DNA from: Octopus vulgaris
Lineage: Eukaryota
DNA: 64,000 bases
Assembly (NCBI GenBank): GCA_951406725.2
Contig: OX597823.1
Location: 42,470,001 to 42,534,000, forward strand
Direction of reading: 5' to 3'
The number at the start of each line of letters is the position of its first letter. The first letter of the stretch is position 1. The position numbers and the translations under genes are program-made. Positions 3,121 through 37,730 of the stretch are shown here, in pieces. The notes under the pieces are model-generated. The model was given only the letters and a program-made list of their open reading frames with translations. It did no database searches and was not told the origin of the DNA.

Positions 3121-3806
3121 ATTCTAAATGATTAATACCGAAGACAAAGTGTACTGGAAGCTTTATTTAGGACAAAGATCATTTTGGCTTACTTCTGCAC
3201 TGCTTCCCAGTGGGTGAGGAATGAGGTAATGGAATCAAATGCACTCTATATTGCAGAAGAAACCTCCTCAGGCCACATAAAGCAGTTTAGTGCTATAAGA
3301 TATACATTTCACTGATATGTGTGGTAAGATATGTTAGTAGTTCACCAATGGATTAATGAGGTAGGATTTGTGGTGTATATTTAGTGGGTGATTGTTAAAG
3401 AATGTGAGAAAATAAATGTAAAAAATTGATGCAATAGCCAGAATGGTTTTTTAACGAAAAGGGTTCCTCCAAAACCCATTCTGACCATTCCAACTATTCT
3501 TTATATTTATTTTTTGTCTTCTTTACAATTTCCTAAATATACACTAGAAATCCTGCCTCTAAGGGTGAACTACTAACATGCATATGATACCAACATATCT
3601 TGCCACACATATCAGTGACATGTACATCTTATAGCACTTAACTGCTTAATGTGACCTGAGGAAGTTTCTTCTGCAATATGAGGTGCATTCGATTCCATTA
3701 CATCATTCCCCACCCACTAGGATGCAGTGCAGAAGTAAGCTGAAACGATAGTTGTCCTAAATAAAGTATCCAGTATACTCTGTCTTTGATATTAATCATT
3801 TAGAAT
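3121..3806. repeat. Fold-back element: ~225-240 bp imperfect inverted arms (3121-3346, 3564-3806), one HHR motif per arm
   Basis: attctaaatgattaata...ttagtagttcacc is the reverse complement of ggtgaactactaa...tattaatcatttagaat. HHR on + at 3653-3756 and on - at 3171-3274. Confidence 0.85.
3653..3756 (+). ncRNA. Type I hammerhead motif (right arm of fold-back)
   Basis: gac-CTGAGGA-agtttcttctgca...tgcagaagtaagct-GAAA-cgatag-TT-gtc, followed by AATAAA. Confidence 0.65.
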
Positions 3807-9929: not shown

Positions 9930-12539
9930 TTCAAGAGTTCATGCAGCTTTATACTGAATACGTGGGCAACCAAGTCCGGTCTATCTGATGAAGTTTGGCC
10001 TGGAAGTAAATTTTCTCTAACTTCTTGCCAATTAGGATTGCAGGTTACTGTGAGGAAGATATCAGGAGGACCATATATGTGCACAATAGTCATGGCATCT
10101 TAATAGTGCTCATGCATATTCCTAGGAGAACATTGAAATGATGAAGGCAAGATAACTGTGTGTCCTATTCGAGCATTTGCAGCATTAACAGCATTCTGTA
10201 AATGATTGGCAAGACCATGGTATTCTACTGCTTTTAACTTGTGTTAATGATTCTTCCCAAAATCTATATTGTTACCTTCGACTTGCAGGTAAGAGTCTAA
10301 TGCCCATTACTGGAAGAGATTGCATCCATGAATAACTGGGTTGAATTCACCATCTCTAACTGCTGTAAGAGACATTATATGTTGGAACAATGTAACAGTT
10401 TGCTTCGAGTTTGCTCTATTTTTGTTACCAATCATATGTGGTTGCCAGCCTGGTTCTCCGTATGGAAAGAACAATACATATGTCATTGGGTCGAGGTTGG
10501 GGCTAAGAATGTTCAAACTGATCATATGAACTTCATTGTTTCTTGGGTAAACTTTGAAATCTCTGTTGAATGGTGGCTTGCCATCAGTATTGCTGAAGAC
10601 CATAGCTATTTCATTAGCTGATGGTAAATTGTATTTCCACCTATCAGCAATGCATTTCCTGTTGAAGACTAAATTTACGACAGACATAGGCCTCTGTTCC
10701 TGTTGAGGATGCTGTTTCTCGTGCAATTCTACTTCTCGTGATGTCCTGTAAGATGCAGCATAGACATTGTTCGCTCTGATAATCTCATCAAATCTGTGCA
10801 TCACCTCAGGTGTACATCTTTCATTTGCTGCATTCTGAGCCCGCACTGTGGTGGCTTGAACGCTGTCAACAACATACTGTTGTGCAAATTATTTGTGGTA
10901 GCCCTCAACAGGATGCATGTGCAAAGTCCTGTGATAAACGTGGCCATGACCTCTGAAGCAGAAAGGACCTCATCCTTCTGGGTCATCAATGTGAACACCC
11001 ATTGATGTGAAAGATTGAGCAGAGTTGTATGACCTTATGTTTTCCTTGAAGTTAACATAATGTGGATGTTGAAGGTCTGACAACAGAGATTGTAAGTATG
11101 GAGGAAAGTCTCTTTTAACTGAAGGCAGGACTTACCCTTTATGGCAGCAACTGTTAAAGCACCCGTCTGATGGTCACTCTGAAGCAAAATGTTTGGCTCT
11201 ACAAAACTGACACAATGTGTTCATATCACCACAATTACGAACTGGAACAGTCTCTTCATTATAAGTATGATTATTTACTAAATTTACAAGATTTCCAACT
11301 CTTCATGCAACTCTCATTGCATTCGCATTCAGCTGCCTTCGATTATTTCACTGTTCTTCCATTTCAGTATTAATTAATTCTTCCATTCTTCTCCTCATTC
11401 ACTCTCTGGAATCATTTACTTCTGCTTCAGTTTCATTTTCTGGTCTTAGTCTCTCTCTCTCTCTATCTTAAACCTTCTCTCCCCTCTGCTGCCTGCTTTT
11501 CCATTTCACCTTGGTGCCTTTGCAATGTTCTCTCTCTTTCAATTTCTCTCCTTTGGGCTGCTTGCTATTCAGTTTCATCTTGTCACCTCTGTGATGCTCT
11601 CATTCTTAGATCTTCTCTCTTCTCTACTACTTGCTCTTCTGCTTCATCTTGGCGCCTTTGTGATACACTTATTATTAGATCCCTCCTCTCAGCTGTTTGC
11701 TCTTCTGTTGCACCTTGGCACCTTTGTGAGGATTTCATTCTTAGATCTTCTCTTCTCTCTACTGCTTGCTGTTCTGTTTCATCCTGGTGCTTTTGTGCTG
11801 CTCTCTGTCTTTGGATATCTCTCCTTTGTGCAATGAAGTTCTCCTTTTTATTTTGATGTCTTCAAGTCTGTCATCTTGCATCATGTGCTCTTCTCTCTTG
11901 TCTCATTTCTTGTGATTGATTTAATAATACTTTTTTTAATCTTCTATTTTGTAATCTTCTTGCTTCCAGTTCTTTCTGAGTGAGACTGGCTATTCTTCGC
12001 CTTTGTCTCACTCTTGCTAATAGTCACCTTCTGCCTGTTTCATTGTCCATAGCAGAAGGAAAAGTATCAGTGAATGGATAACAAACACTACATACCATAA
12101 ATAAGTTATGAGAGTACGGATGACTAAAAATATCAGTGAACTGATAACAAACACGGTGTTTAGGGTTAGGGTTAGGGTTATGCCAAAATTGGATGGTATG
12201 TGTATTCTTTACCCCTGCCAACAAACACAATATACAGTAAATATATACACACATTGGAACTGAAATATTAGAGAAAATGATCTTTGTAAAATGTAAACAA
12301 AGCATTTCGCCTGTGAAATGAGAACCTTTTGCAAGCAATACTCGTTTTGCCACTTCTCCTCTCTCTCATTGCTATCACTTTCTCTCACTCCCTCTTAGTC
12401 ATGGCTATTACTCTCACTACTTCTCCTTCACTGAATTACTATTTATTTTCTCTCCTCTCCCTTCACTTATATTACTCTTTCCCTTACTCCCACCAACTGT
12501 GTAATTTTGGACAAATGTATATACATATGTATATATAGA
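9930..12539 (-). mobile_element. Decayed Helitron, N-terminal RepHel region, 3'-truncated
   Basis: Minus-strand motifs CCHKGKV, NIRSYN, YNLPSANEIAMVF, LDPMTYVLFFPYGEPGW, VILPSSFQCSPRNM, PDIFLTVTCNPNWQE, DRPDLVAHVF. Candidate 5' end A|TCTATATA at 12539. Helicase part absent. Confidence 0.9.
11562..11810 (-). repeat. In-frame 66-69 bp tandem repeat encoding 22-23 aa ETEEQ..ERRE units (STPR-like) in the Helitron N-terminus
   Basis: Units start 11562, 11631, 11697, 11766; minus translation DETEQQAVERREDLRMKSSQRCQGATEEQTAERR...DEAEEQVVEKREDLRMRASQR. Confidence 0.7.
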
Positions 12540-14832: not shown

Positions 14833-16722
14833 ACCAGTTTGCTGGTACTATAGGAAATTCAAGTGTACACAGCCCTGCTTTTACTCTTCTCAGGGAAACT
14901 AGGCAGAGAGGCGTTGGGTACGTCAGTTGTCTCCCCCATTGATTCACCTTACCGTGCATTTTTTTTTTATCCAAGGTGCTATTTCTTCAAAATCCTTTAT
15001 AGTGGGAGCCAGCGTGAGTATCTGGCTTCGAAGGTTTACTTCCACCAACCCTGGTCTTTCCGGCATATCTCTCTACGCGGTGAATCACTCAGTCATTAAA
15101 ACCTACGGACAAATCTCTCTTTCCCTGGATTTATCACTCCATAGGGATTTCAAGTGGATCTTCGTCATTGTGGACCTTTCCTATCCCATCCTTAGTGCTG
15201 ACTTCTTACATCACTATTCTTTCCTTATGGAAGTCAGAGGACGCCGGCTTATTGACGATACTATCTCACTCACCATTCTTCTGTCCCTGTTGTGAGCCCG
15301 CCTTTCTTTGTGGCTGCTTCGGGTAGCTCTTACCACCAGTTACTCGCTGCGTTTCCAGATTTGTCTGATTTGTCATTTCATCCGTCGAATCCAGCCCATT
15401 CCACAAGACATTTCATCACGACTAAGGGACATCCAGTTTTTTTCCCGTTTGTCTCCAGAGAAACTCCGGATTGCCTGGGCTGAATTCGAGCACATGCTCC
15501 AGCTGGGCCTTATTCGTCCCTCCACGATCCCGTGGGCAGCACCTTTATACATGGCCAGGAAGAATGAAGCTGATTTTCGTCCGGTTGGAGATTTTGGACG
15601 TCTTAACACTGTTACTGTTCAGGATCGCTATCCGCCATCAAATGTGCAGGATTTTTCGTCTGCCCTGCATGGTAGTAAGATTTTTTTCTAAAATTGACTT
15701 GGTACGCGTGTACCATCAAATCCCTGTCAACCTCGACGACATTCCAAAGACAGCTGTCACCACGCCTTTTGGGGCGTTTGAATTTTTGTCTATGCCGTTT
15801 GGACTTCTTAATGCGGTCAGCACGTTCCAAAGTTTCATTGATGAGGTCGTTCGTGGGTTAAAATTTGTCTTCGCATGCGTCGATGACCTTCGAATCGCTA
15901 ATGGCACTCAAGACCAGCACTTTCAACACTTGACCCAGCTGTTCAAGTACCTACGTTCCTATGATGTGAAGATCAAACCGGCTAAGCGTGTATTTGGTTC
16001 AACCAGTTTGGAATTTGGGGGGCATCTCATTGACGCCGACGGTTTTCGTCTGCTCCCTTCTAAAGTGGAAGCCACCAAACGCTTGTCTCCTCCTGTTTCC
16101 TTAAAACAGCTCAGAAATTTTATTGGTTTAATTAATTGTTATCGTCGTTTCCTTCCTAACTCTGCGGAAAAGTTGCTTCCCTTGATCCAGCTTTTGAATC
16201 TGACAAAACTGCTCAAGCATCCTTCCTCGCTCATCCTATTGCGGATACAAAATTGTCACTCACTGTCAACGTGCATCATCCGCTATTGCCGCAGTTTTAG
16301 AGCAATCTGTCAACAGCCGAAGCCAGCCGTTGGCTTTCTTTTCTCATCAGTTGAAAGCTGTCGAACTGAAATACAGTGTGTTTGGTAAAGAACTCTTAGC
16401 AATTTATCTAGCGGTGAAGTATTTCTCTCACCTCGAAGGTAGGGACTTCACGACTTTCACCGACCACAAACCGCTAACGTTCGCTCCCTTTGCCAAAACG
16501 GACCGGTACGCGTCCATAGAAACAAGGCACTTGAACTACATATCGCATTCGCCACATCGCTGGCACTGACAACATATCCGCCGACGCCTTATCTCACCTA
16601 CCTGCCGGTGCATTGTGGTCTCCTGCTTCGATTGATTTGGTTGCTAAGGCTACTGGCCAACCCTCCTTGGACTCTCTGTACGTCTCTTCACCACAGATTT
16701 CCTGCTGCAAGTTTGAACACCT
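14833..16722 (+). mobile_element. Decayed Ty3/Gypsy LTR retrotransposon internal region (CsRn1-like): gag end, protease, RT, RNase H
   Basis: Gag end CWYYRKFKCTQPC..QGN*; protease region IKTYG..W.F.I.D..PIL.ADFL; RT PWAAPL, DRYP, FSKIDL..YHQIP, MPFGL.NA..FQ, CVDDL; RNase [20 protein letters not shown]. Frameshifted; no LTR or integrase seen. Confidence 0.93.
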
Positions 16723-16827: not shown

Positions 16828-17872
16828 TGTGGGGATGCTGAAAGTTCCTGGCTTTGGGTAAAAGAAAACACAGGAGGATTAGTTGATTATAATTGTAATC
16901 AAAATATTCTGCTCTCAGATTTACACTTATTGCACCCCATAAATAATGCGGTTTTTTCAATAACATGAATTAAAAGTCGAAGGGGTACAGGATAAACTAC
17001 GTTCATCAACTTACTGTAAAAGCAGGTAGTAATTTTACCTTGCTCTTATTCTTAATACAAGTTTTGCAGAGTTCAGTTCGATTTTAACAGTTATTTTTTT
17101 CAAAGCTATAATGGAAGTGACAAACAAACATATTCGGCATATTTTGCTTTATGAGTTCGACAAAGGCAACAACGCAATGGAAAATGCGAGCAATATTAAT
17201 GCAGTATATGGGAATCGGGCAGTAAGCGTAAGCCAGTGTGAACAGTGGTTCCAGAAATTCCAAGCCACAAACCACAGCCAAGAAGACCAGCCTCGTCCTG
17301 GAAGATCTGTAAATGAGGATGTCCTGCAAACCCTGGTGGAACAAAATGCCATCGTAATTGTTGAGGAACTAGCAGAGAAGCTTGGATTTGCTATCGGAAA
17401 ATCAGCAATTTGGGTCAGTGGGTTCCTCACAAACTTTCCGAGTCTAATCGCGCGCAGAGAGTGAATGCGTGCTCTTTGCTGTCACGTCTCACGAATGAAT
17501 CTATTTGGGAGCGATTAGTGACTGGTGGTGAGAAATGGGTTCTCTATAAAAATGTCAATTGCCGAAAACAGTGGGCAGGAAAAGGAGAAACATCGGCACC
17601 TCAGGCTAAAGATGGACTTCACCCAACGTAAGGTGTTGTTATCTGTTTGGTGGGATATGAAAAGTTTAGTCCACTTTGAACTTTTAAACCCAAACCAAAC
17701 GATAACAAAGCAGATCTACTGCGAGCAGCTTAAGTCAGCGCTAGAAGAAACACAATCATCTTTGCTTTCAAGACGAAAAGCGTTCTTCCATCAGGATAAT
17801 GCTCAGCCACATACAGCGAAGATGACATTCCAAAGGCTGGAGCAGTGTGAATGGGTAACTATGCCCCACCCT
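16828..17872 (+). mobile_element. mariner transposon, decayed and 3'-truncated
   Basis: HIRHILLYEF..WFQKF..PRPGR; WVPHKL; LVTGGEKWVLY; LLSVWWD; HQDNAQPHTA. TA followed by TIR-like tgtggggatgctgaaagttcctggcttt. Confidence 0.92.
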
Positions 17873-18394
17873 TCATGTGTATCAAAGCAATAATAAAACA
17901 CGTATAATAAAACATGTATCAAGCGTCTTCAAGGTTGTCTCACAGTTCAACTAATTGCTACAAACATTGATGTTATGCGTGTGGTTTGTTGTATTGGGAA
18001 AGACAACCAGTTGAAAACCATTGTTATTATTTAACGTGTTTATTGACGTTGCTTGATTACACGGACGACATTAGCGTAGTGATACATTGTTTACTTTTCA
18101 CACAGTTCGTACTATTCACTACAAAATAGTGCCAAGAGTAGGGAGTAGTTTGGCATTCGCAAACACACAGATATGAATATGTAACAATTGGTCTAGCTTT
18201 TCTTTTGTGCATGTGTTTTCTTTTTTTCTAAATAAATCACTATCCCATATGTTGATGCATATATTGGCTAGGATTCCAGAAAACTCTATTGGTTGCTTAA
18301 AATAGACAGAATTTATCACCAAATGAAATTTGATTCAATAAATGAATGTCCATGCATATTTATTTTATACATATGTACGTATGCATGTATGTTC

Positions 18395-30382: not shown

Positions 30383-31017
30383 AATTGTTACATTAAGGTC
30401 TTTCAGAAAAGAATGACTATTAATGTGATTATGTTCAGCTAATAATAGTTATAAATTAGTTAAAATGCATACAGAAAGTTTCTAGACCTAAGGGCTGTTC
30501 CTGTCATTCCTTTTAACAATCAAGAAAAGATTGAGAAATGCGATGTGGGTCGTAGGGTGGCGATGGAAGAGCATGAAAACACATATTTGCCTGAAGTGCT
30601 CGTTCTTCAATATGTATGTACAAATATACTAAATACCATATATATATATATATATATATTTGTGTATATATATATGTATATATACCTTTATATATGCACA
30701 CACATTTATGTATATATATATATATATATTTATATATGCACTCACATTTATGTATATATATATATATATATATATATGCATATGTTGGTATACATATATG
30801 TATATAGGTATGTATACACAAAACATGTGCAATATATATCTATGTGTATGTGTTTATGTGTTCAAGTATATTTAATCAGCTGTGCTGATGTAATTTTATA
30901 TTTATATAAATCTTTAACTCTTTCTATATTTTTGTCATAGTAGGCAGGGAAAGAATGAATTGGAACATGTTCAGAGACCTAGTGCCACTGCTGGCTATAA
31001 AGGCCTTCACCCTCAGG

Positions 31018-31064
<47 letters not shown>

Positions 31065-31111
31065 ATATGTATCAAATGAAATAAAATGAAAAACAGGACA
31101 CTAGGGATGTC

Positions 31112-31204
31112 GCAGTACACATGTTTCAAGCTTTATAGAACAACTTATTCTTACAACAATGCATAATCGACATAACAGATAGTTCAAAAGCCCTCTTCAG
31201 CCGC
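31112..31204 (-). ncRNA. Type I hammerhead ribozyme, core intact (left arm)
   Basis: Minus strand: gcgg-CTGAAGA-gggcttt...aaagctt-GAAA-catgtg-TA-ctgc; stems close with G-U pairs. Confidence 0.75.
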
Positions 31205-31375
31205 ATGCAATTGCTACACCAAAGACTTGTATCACATTATGAAAGATTTGATTATGAAGATTTACAAACATACTTTCCCAGTGATATTCGGTTTACCTAC
31301 TATTATAAATAATACCAAATGTTCCTTCTCAAACCTTTCATAATGTGATACAAGTCTTTGGTGTAGCAATTGCAT

Positions 31376-31468
31376 GCAGCTGAAGAGGGCTTTTGAATTA
31401 TCTGTTATGTCGATTATGCATTGATGTAAGAATAAGTTGTTCTATAAAGCTCAAAACATATGTACCGC
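31376..31468 (+). ncRNA. Type I hammerhead motif, G12 lost (right arm)
   Basis: gcag-CTGAAGA-gggcttt...aaagctc-AAAA-catatg-TA-ccgc. Confidence 0.65.
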
Positions 31469-31580
31469 AACATCCTTTGTGCCCTGCTTTTCATTTTATT
31501 TCATTTGATACATATATCCTCTCACCTATGCTACTAGCTGGCATACACAGGTGCTTACATTTATCAAGTATTCATCCTGA

Positions 31581-31629
<49 letters not shown>

Positions 31630-31852
31630 TATATATATATAGGAGTCCCACATGCACACCCATATCCTGAGATGTAACATGTGGGAGTTGAACATCCTGT
31701 TGAAATACAAGTCTGCTATTTCATTGGCACAGATGTGGCTTTGTGGTTAGGAAGCTTGCTAGTTCAGTCCTACAGACCAAAGTCTTGAGAGTGGATTTGG
31801 TAGAGAGAAAATGTTGTGTACTTACAATCATGAACACTCATGTACATACACC

Positions 31853-34082: not shown

Positions 34083-34230
34083 GCGCACACACAAACACAC
34101 TTGCATGCACAAATTGTTGGATCAGGTGATGAAAGTCAACTAATTAGCCTAACTAATTAAGGACTAAGTTAGTTTAGATGAGATGCAGATGAGATGCATT
34201 TGTCTACTCACTCATATATATATATATATA

Positions 34231-34908
34231 TATTATATTAATAATTACATAAATAATTATAACAAGGGATTGGCTGAACGCCTCACCACATGCTGAAGAT
34301 AGACACCAAAGGCACTAAAATCACCTTAAAAACTCCAAAAGCACAGGGAGTAGTTGAGCAAAAGAAAGATAATAAATTAAACTTTTGGTTAATCATGTAT
34401 AAAGATCTCATTTCAGGCTAAAGGTAAAGAAATTACCTACTGCTATCATCAGTATCGATATTTCATTGTATAAATGTACAAATATCCACACATACCCATA
34501 CGAGCAGAGCCGTCACACAGCAATATACATACCCACTTGCAAAAATATATAGTAAAGGTAGAATTTACCTCTTTCTCTTCAGCCATGTGTTATATATCAA
34601 AATAATGCAGCATTGAAAATTTTCATATATTAATTATATAATAAGGATATAATCATTCATAATTTTATCAAGTCGACAGAATATTGACACTGATGATAGC
34701 AGTCAGCATTTTTTTTACCTTTAGCTTGAATTGAGATCTCATATGCAATTAACCAAAACTTTGATTTATTATATTTCATTTACTCGACTACAACTGTGGT
34801 TTGGAGTTTTTAAGGTGGTTTTACTGCCTCTGGCGTCTAGTTTCAGCATGTGGTGAGGCGCTTTGCTAATCCTTTGTTATAATTATGTATATAATTATTA
34901 ATATAATA
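34231..34908. repeat. Fold-back element: ~230 bp inverted arms (34231-34464, 34679-34908), HHR relic in each arm
   Basis: cgcctcaccacatgctgaa versus ttcagcatgtggtgaggcg; tgctatcatcagt versus actgatgatagca. HHR relic on + at 34684-34748: ttgaca-CTGATGA...GAAt-tgagatctca-TA-tgcaa. Confidence 0.85.
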
Positions 34909-35014
34909 TTTGGAAAATTTACCTATTAGGTATTTTCGTGCTGAAAATATATATGTATATATATATATATATATATGAAAAAAGGTTTGAAAATGCAATT
35001 TAAACGATGTTTAT

Positions 35015-37191: not shown

Positions 37192-37730
37192 TATATATAA
37201 TTATATATAATTAATTTCACCCTTTATTGTTACTGATAACCATATTTTATCCCAGTAAATGACCACAGCATCTTGTCTTGGCTACACGTGGGTGGAAAGG
37301 GGCTGGTGACACAAACTTTCATTCACACTTTGAATTTCGTGGTACTGGTAATGGCTTTAGCTCGCTCTGACACTGAGTTGAGATGATGTCTTCTAGTATC
37401 TCAAAATTTAATATACAATTATTCATAATTGTAGTGTCCTACGCTGATGAGAAAAGAAGTTGGGTAAGGTAGAATTATCTAATTCTTATGCTTTCCTAAA
37501 ACTTGATTTCGAAACGTACGTCCGTAGGTGACTTAAAATTGTATGATAGATTGCCGTCATTTCATTCTCTCTTACCTGTCTGTGTTTGCCTTTCAAGTGC
37601 TGTGTTTTTACTGAGATCTCCCTTTTAGTAGAAAGAATAGCTATAACTCTTTGACTGCTATTTCTAAATTCGGTGTGTGGTGAGGCAATTCGTTGCTAAA
37701 CCCTTAATTGCTTAGTATTATATATATATA
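37192..37730 (+). mobile_element. ~540 bp non-coding TA-flanked element carrying an intact HHR
   Basis: Bounded by TA-rich tracts; 3' end gtgtggtgaggc..ttgctaaacccttaatt shared with the outer arm of the 34231-34908 fold-back. Confidence 0.7.
37438..37528 (+). ncRNA. Canonical type I hammerhead ribozyme; predicted cleavage after GUC at 37522
   Basis: cctacg-CTGATGA-gaaa..aagtt..agaatta/taattct..aactt..tttc-GAAA-cgtacg-TC-cgtagg. Perfect 6 bp stem I, G-C closed long stem II, palindromic stem III, all conserved core bases present. Confidence 0.9.

Follow-up and report, generated by a model that had tools for sequence, protein, structure and literature searches.

Organization of the locus

The analyzed window, a stretch of 64,000 nucleotides of the Octopus vulgaris genome (contig OX597823.1, positions 42,470,001 to 42,534,000), is AT-rich and microsatellite-dense and belongs to a host genome of 2.8 Gb. 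The inverted repeat of the preliminary description is present: its arms, 31063-31251 and 31329-31517, are complementary except at 13 of 189 positions. The layout given there was revised at two points: the supposed 77-bp spacer (31252-31328) is ordinary family sequence, namely the 5' continuation of the right-hand copy (31246-31584), and the right end placed at 31517 is too short, the right-hand copy reaching 31584 with its tail included. Copies of the family elsewhere in the same genome align without a break across the supposed spacer and often beyond 31517; the locus therefore consists of one long copy on the plus strand joined to one short copy on the minus strand. Its features are the following:

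31021-31062, no strand: left (TA)n tract, putative target site judged from the sequence
31063-31245, minus strand: short 5'-truncated copy of the family 3' end, stopping at the inner end E1, without tail
31112-31204, minus strand: left type I hammerhead motif, core CTGAAGA at 31200-31194 and GAAA at 31127-31124, predicted cut after 31116
31246-31251, no strand: 5'-to-5' junction, a 6-nt overlap of the two copies in which the left copy matches 5 of 6 positions
31246-31584, plus strand: long 5'-truncated copy of the family 3' end, stopping at the outer end E2
31252-31328, plus strand: family sequence upstream of the right arm, formerly described as spacer
31376-31468, plus strand: right hammerhead motif, with two changes at CpG sites, A for G12 at 31453 and a mismatch in stem I at 31378
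31518-31584, plus strand: tail of about 70 nt between the 3' end classes E1 (31512-31517) and E2 (about 31584)
31585-31641, no strand: right (TA)n tract, putative target site judged from the sequence

The overlap of the two copies at the junction accounts for one of the 13 arm mismatches. Since E1 terminates the short arm and E2 the long one, the stretch of about 70 nt between these ends is a one-sided tail, carried by the right-hand (long) copy only, and both flanks of the palindrome are (TA)n. Fixed terminal inverted repeats, by which a MITE or Foldback DNA transposon would be recognized, were not found, as the inner breakpoints vary by locus and the outer ends are unlike. Public contigs over the region are repeat fragments of 30-150 nt, none of those listed spans the junction, and 30860-31083 is without cover; family fragments are present in one public contig set, the RNA origin of which is only guessed.

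Elsewhere in the window, motifs mark three fragments: 10307-10888 (minus strand), which resembles a Helitron helicase, 15296-16569 (plus strand), presumably a Gypsy-type reverse transcriptase (RT), and 17033-17893 (plus strand), presumably a mariner transposase. Two older fold-backs at 3121-3806 and 34230-34909 carry hammerhead half-cores in their arms and match none of the fetched families.

The repeat family, its two 3' ends and head-to-head pairs

A search of the species' own genome with the right arm returned 1165 candidates, of which 40 were scored and found to be 95-97% identical. Two end classes, each followed by (TA)n, were recognized among 91 pieces of at least 80% identity, namely E1 in 43 and E2 in 34. 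An inverted partner is present in at least 13 of the 28 distinct top-scoring loci, with a different inner breakpoint at each. Among 98 distinct pieces 17 head-to-head pairs were identified, and every one (17/17) combines an E1 arm with a tailed arm; if the ends were independent the probability of this pairing would be 6e-6, the counts being based on top-scoring loci rather than on a random sample. For this count L022, which ends at 31571, was scored as tailed, and L165 was excluded as its long arm lacks a 3' end. In four of the 17 pairs (L003, L008, L025 and L180) the tailed arm consists of the tail sequence alone. The junctions of most other pairs show an overlap of 0-1 nt or a short gap; the 6-nt overlap at the present locus is therefore not a rule, and microhomology as a general feature of the junctions was rejected. 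The head-to-tail layout of non-LTR retrozymes was likewise searched for, and no repeated full unit was detected among the 98 distinct pieces, apparent "tandem" rows being split alignments or members of another family.

Shortly before the outer end E2, a TCACCC/TCATCC motif is found in three families (window 31570-31582; tails of L124 and L192), possibly a shared RT-start signal. No paper on this octopus repeat family or on counts of tailed and untailed arms was found in the literature searched, most subscription papers lying outside that search.

The parent element and a young sister family

The family was traced to a coding element by three loci. L178 carries an open reading frame (ORF), a 3' UTR and the family 3' end in that order, and at the point where the ORF is truncated in L165 and L180 there follows directly a piece of the family tail in inverted orientation. 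These RT–GIY-YIG ORF pieces are broken; their DNA is 85-88% identical among themselves, and they share 51-67% protein identity with an intact 836-amino-acid ORF of a sister family. ORF pieces and sister ORF alike show the CxCX5C linker, no CCHH, and the CxxC and CxH motifs which define the Hydra clade. Judged by these sequences, the family would represent the 3' end of an endonuclease-bearing (EN+) Penelope-like element (PLE) with an RT–GIY-YIG ORF, and the reading of its long copies as a 1-kb non-coding element was dropped once the ORF-linked copies appeared. No ORF is present at the locus itself, and for its own family the fetched loci contained neither an intact ORF, a full-length copy nor a partial tandem.

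Another candidate parent, the GIY-YIG ORF upstream of the family end in L032 (13660 candidates), was rejected: it has its own, unlike 3' end, and the family end lies downstream in 0 of its 29 other fetched copies. In this more abundant RT–GIY-YIG family (L063-L092) a hammerhead-like stem and GAAA are seen at the 3' end, with CTGTYGAA replacing CTGANGA in most of the copies shown.

The sister family is young, its copies being 98-100% identical, and its hammerhead region and tail are about 72% identical to those of the present family. Young autonomous loci with Hydra-type motifs and intact ORFs of up to 836 amino acids were noted at L184-L186 and L153-L160 (e.g., G000:C4:50164500-50173500), with inverted arms of up to 2 kb. 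The sister element is about 4.4 kb long with a long 3' UTR. Its full-length copies (L184, L185 and L186) have the hammerhead and the tail placed ahead of the ATG in partial tandem, the stretch matching the tail running into the 5' UTR to about 78 nt before the ATG; L184 begins and finishes at E1 and comprises exactly one unit. The sister protein shows YRDD, DKT, the CxCX5C linker and a YIG endonuclease without CCHH and with CxxC and CxH, while RWK reads RWA; seven relatives of this ORF carry RWK, RWR or RWQ. A Pfam scan of the 836-amino-acid ORF gave zero matches, so that the RT and endonuclease assignment rests on these motifs and on the relatives, which number 1377, nearly all without a name, with PF01541 on two of those listed.

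The rule of one tailed and one untailed arm was observed for the sister family in 14 of 15 head-to-head pairs, in which one arm ends at E2 by design since the pairs were fetched with a tail-bearing query. Eleven of these pairs are sharply E1 plus E2, in three the short arm ends 13-19 nt before E1, and in the remaining one, L163, both arms are tailed (1/15).

The hammerhead motifs

A type I hammerhead requires the core CUGANGA, GAAA and UH with three stems, which is found in the left arm, whereas the right arm deviates at G12. On the minus strand the left arm keeps CTGAAGA, GAAA and TA intact, in accordance with the preliminary description. The right arm has A in the position of G12 (31453), which is G in 73 of 76 family copies. 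The ancestral motif that had been reconstructed from the two arms is indeed the commonest state among natural copies, and the 3' sides of the ribozymes point outward in both arms, as claimed. The motif was also called the best-preserved one; its core is intact, but for stem I a pairing of 0.0 is predicted in either arm, as compared to 0.8 in an intact natural copy. Moreover, the left hammerhead has G-U wobbles in stem I and in the closing pair of stem II, and its loop III palindrome is imperfect. In the predicted fold of the full element, every hammerhead pair has a probability of 0.0 in a transcript of either strand, a duplex of -292 or -331 kcal/mol being formed instead. The working double hammerhead implied by the earlier account is thus not supported, as the motifs lie on opposite strands, G12 is missing from the right one, and both would, by prediction, be locked up in the fold-back. 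Both hammerheads are probably inactive relics.

Across the family, 68 of 76 copies retain an intact core. Rare variants among genomic copies occur at 6/555 core positions as compared to 97/7187 in the remainder; since the core thus varies at the background rate, selection on it in the genomic copies was rejected, and its conservation belongs to the once-active lineage and not to the inserted copies. Folding z-scores of +1.09 and +0.65 were not significant. In a test for covariation of the stems on 20 family rows, 97.1% of the cells were paired, a value reached by 276 of 500 shuffles, and the six two-sided cells were reached by 13 of 500. Loop III is palindromic in the subfamilies (CATATG and CACGTG), with CATGTG in between, and the helix II domain of the family hammerhead comprises 66 nt.

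Rfam gave zero hammerhead matches at E up to 10 in 31060-31560, and over the window no hammerhead was among the best 150 of 201 matches; its microRNA matches in the window were discarded as hairpin and microsatellite noise. The hammerheads are probably missed because of the long helix II domain, and ribozyme counts in such genomes are accordingly probably too low. A scan for the core combined with a 6-nt palindrome and stems returned 182 matches in 862,002 fetched bases, a set redundant and enriched by design, as compared to 0-1 in 10 Markov controls. These matches fall into about ten sequence types with helix II domains of 44-85 nt and unlike palindromes, and since the scan required pairing they do not constitute independent covariation. 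An ORF link was found among these types only for the present family and its sister. Further unrelated hammerhead-like motifs, with helix II domains of 44-85 nt and a loop III palindrome of 6 nt, were noted at L061:704, L111:201 and 2509, L117:1315, L140:1228, L167:4262, L170:3762 and L174:3447.

A further element of the window, at 37208-37720 (plus strand), is a non-coding repeat of young age, for which 2044 candidates were returned and 40 scored (97-100% identical). It carries an intact hammerhead of another family with a long helix II, its core at 37444 and its loop a palindromic CGTACG. Copies elsewhere form head-to-tail partial tandems of about 0.6 kb as well as head-to-head pairs with two end classes about 100 nt apart, and the repeat has the appearance of a retrozyme mobilized by the PLE machinery. 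For a cleavage assay, the hammerhead at 37444 is a better candidate than the palindrome at 31063-31584.

Differences between the arms

Outside the overlap the arms differ at 12 positions, and relative to the commonest family state five changes fall on the right arm and seven on the left. The arms of the locus have zero shared non-majority variants, and two of the left-arm differences are variants common to 24 and 31 other copies, neither of which is present in the right arm. The arm-to-arm divergence amounts to 6.7%, and 36 of 77 other copies are closer. The decay had been ascribed to methylation of CpG sites. Differences are in fact enriched at family CpG sites (4/16 CpG positions as compared to 8/350 others; Fisher p about 0.001), but this process accounts for only four of the 12. 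Nine of the 12 differences fall within 36 bp, an unexplained clustering that exceeds the prediction from family site rates (simulation p 0.003).

In young sister pairs, arm mismatches numbered 0-8 in about 900 nt in six of eight cases, 0 in 266 nt in one and 9 in 457 nt in one, while the between-locus divergence of the sister family has a median of 2.3%, well above the differences within pairs. Near-identical sister arms fit a shared template or later conversion. An A/G site in loop III (window 31460; left mirror 31120) differs between the arms in three of 11 pairs compared (L001, L020 and L058), which may reflect the use of two templates, recurrent mutation or an edited template RNA.

Proposed origin of the palindrome

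We consider it highly probable that the locus consists of two copies of the family 3' end, both 5'-truncated and placed head to head within a (TA)n tract, likely derived from one insertion of a Hydra-type PLE, with the hammerheads probably carried along as inactive passengers. The earlier suggestion that two 3' ends meet head to head, in the manner of inverted PLE terminal repeats, is borne out by the tie to the ORF and by a layout, tail and target which match published PLE insertions. For the Poseidon PLE protein, two internal RT start sites were reported to bound the tail, both target strands being cut and extended (PMC11167929). A sequence of events may be proposed from what was observed: the occurrence of two end classes and the way they pair, the link to an ORF, the (TA)n surroundings and the neutral decay. 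By analogy to that system (PMC11167929), the PLE endonuclease would cleave the (TA)n target on both strands, and reverse transcription would be primed by each freed target end, with one cDNA begun at the outer start (E2) and its counterpart at the inner start (E1). Each cDNA would stop early, and their far ends would be joined, here across the 6-nt overlap. The palindrome would then be a by-product of insertion, and a read-through RNA is predicted to form a duplex of about 185 bp rather than a ribozyme.

Self-priming or template switching, in which one cDNA or RNA end loops back and copies itself into the second arm, has been proposed for head-to-head PLE junctions (PMC3846280). Both the near-identity of the young sister arms, with 0-8 mismatches in about 900 nt in six of eight pairs, and the 6-nt overlap at the present junction would be in line with it. 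However, a fold-back copy would be expected to stop variably and not at the other fixed family end, as seen in 17 of 17 pairs, the four arms consisting of tail only have nothing in common with their partners, and an overlap is absent from most junctions. We thus regard this explanation as unlikely.

A still less probable origin is by two independent insertions from different source copies, back to back in one (TA)n tract. It would account for arms which are unlike at two subfamily-variant sites and have no private variants in common, and the family does favor (TA)n, where different PLE families stack (L032 and L092). Against it, no TA is left between the copies, and head-to-head partners recur in at least 13 of 28 top loci, always as tail plus no tail.

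A functional role, be it as a double ribozyme or as a hairpin RNA under selection (dimeric hammerhead, siRNA source or editing substrate), is very improbable. The left core is intact, its loop III self-pairs in the predicted dimer (-8.0 kcal/mol), and a long duplex would be expected upon transcription. Contrarily, as the hammerheads lie on opposite strands, a single transcript carries one sense copy, and the right copy lacks G12; neither the neutral decay of the copies nor the folding z-scores indicate selection, and no host exon was recognized when the 66 long frames of the window were read by eye. An assembly artefact from a chimeric fold-back read has no positive support and a negligible probability, as it would give identical arms and not 12 CpG-biased differences and two different biological ends.

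Returning to the two-copy PLE insertion, a broader proposal is offered tentatively, and we hold it to be less likely than its alternatives: the layout would be an obligate two-primer footprint, in which a PLE dimer uses the outer RT start on one target strand and the inner start on the opposite one, often copying the same stretch of RNA twice, and the hammerheads would form an undescribed subtype (helix II of 44-85 nt, 6-nt palindromic loop III) in about ten families of PLE-type repeats, where the long helix II insert could be a handle for protein-assisted or dimer cleavage. By itself the locus is minor: its layout, seen here in decayed form, is a published one and recurs throughout the genome. 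For PLE specialists the family-level counts have some value. The rule of tail and no tail (17/17, and 14/15 in the sister family) allows the two-start-site model to be tested on genomic data, for which the young sister family, its ORFs intact, offers better material.

Comparison with known systems

The inverted truncated copy, the one-sided tail, the (TA)n target and the opposite-strand hammerhead pairs have all been published already. Insertions of EN-bearing PLEs with an inverted truncated copy, a one-sided tail and a (TA)n target were described by Craig et al. (2021, PMC8557442), and the inverted truncated copy together with the one-sided tail by Arkhipova et al. (2013, PMC3846280); for Penelope-13_HM of the Hydra clade, an inverted truncated copy is listed along with hammerheads on both strands (PMC8557442 supplement). 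In accordance with these EN+ PLE insertions, the octopus locus has a head-to-head truncated copy at the 5' end, a tail at one end, (TA)n and a hammerhead near the 3' end. It differs from them in that the truncation points of the two copies lie far on the 3' side of the ORF and in that the tail measures about 70 nt instead of 30-40. The Hydra clade, including Hydra-1_Obim (PMC8557442), shares with the sister ORF the DKT motif and with the present elements the CxCX5C linker, the lack of CCHH, CxxC and CxH around the end of the endonuclease and (TA)n, whereas the sister ORF has RWA and not RWK. The family hammerhead is unlike the sequence given for Hydra-1_Obim, and its loop 2 of about 52 nt compares with 3-10 nt in the Hydra elements listed (PMC8557442). 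A partial precedent for long loops is found in two spike-moss elements with loops of 29 and 35 nt (PMC8557442 supplement), and half-cores lie 35-50 nt apart in Naiads (PMC8557442).

Pairs of hammerheads on opposite strands, 100-700 bp apart, were reported by Cervera and de la Peña (2014, PMC4209133). The type I hammerheads of PLEs described in that study resemble those of the octopus family in their short stem I, 7-bp base of stem II, dimer-suited palindromic loop III, arrangement in opposite-strand pairs and expected low activity; differences are the 66-nt helix II domain and, in the main subfamily, the lack of an extra base between A9 and stem II. The non-LTR retrozymes (bioRxiv 10.64898/2026.07.22.740005; PMC7229834) are, to judge from the excerpts available, similarly non-coding, PLE-related and equipped with a type I hammerhead, but they are built of head-to-tail tandem units, whereas the short copies described here are truncations of a coding element.

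A mechanistic parallel is drawn to Poseidon PAc (Frangieh et al., 2024, PMC11167929), where the tail is likewise bounded by two internal RT starts and an AT-rich target is cut and extended on both strands. Insertion by Poseidon PAc in vitro proceeded without need for hammerhead cleavage (PMC11167929). Poseidon PAc belongs to a different clade, and the pairing of tailed and untailed arms in inverted genomic copies, as counted here for the octopus families, is not among the results in the available part of that report.
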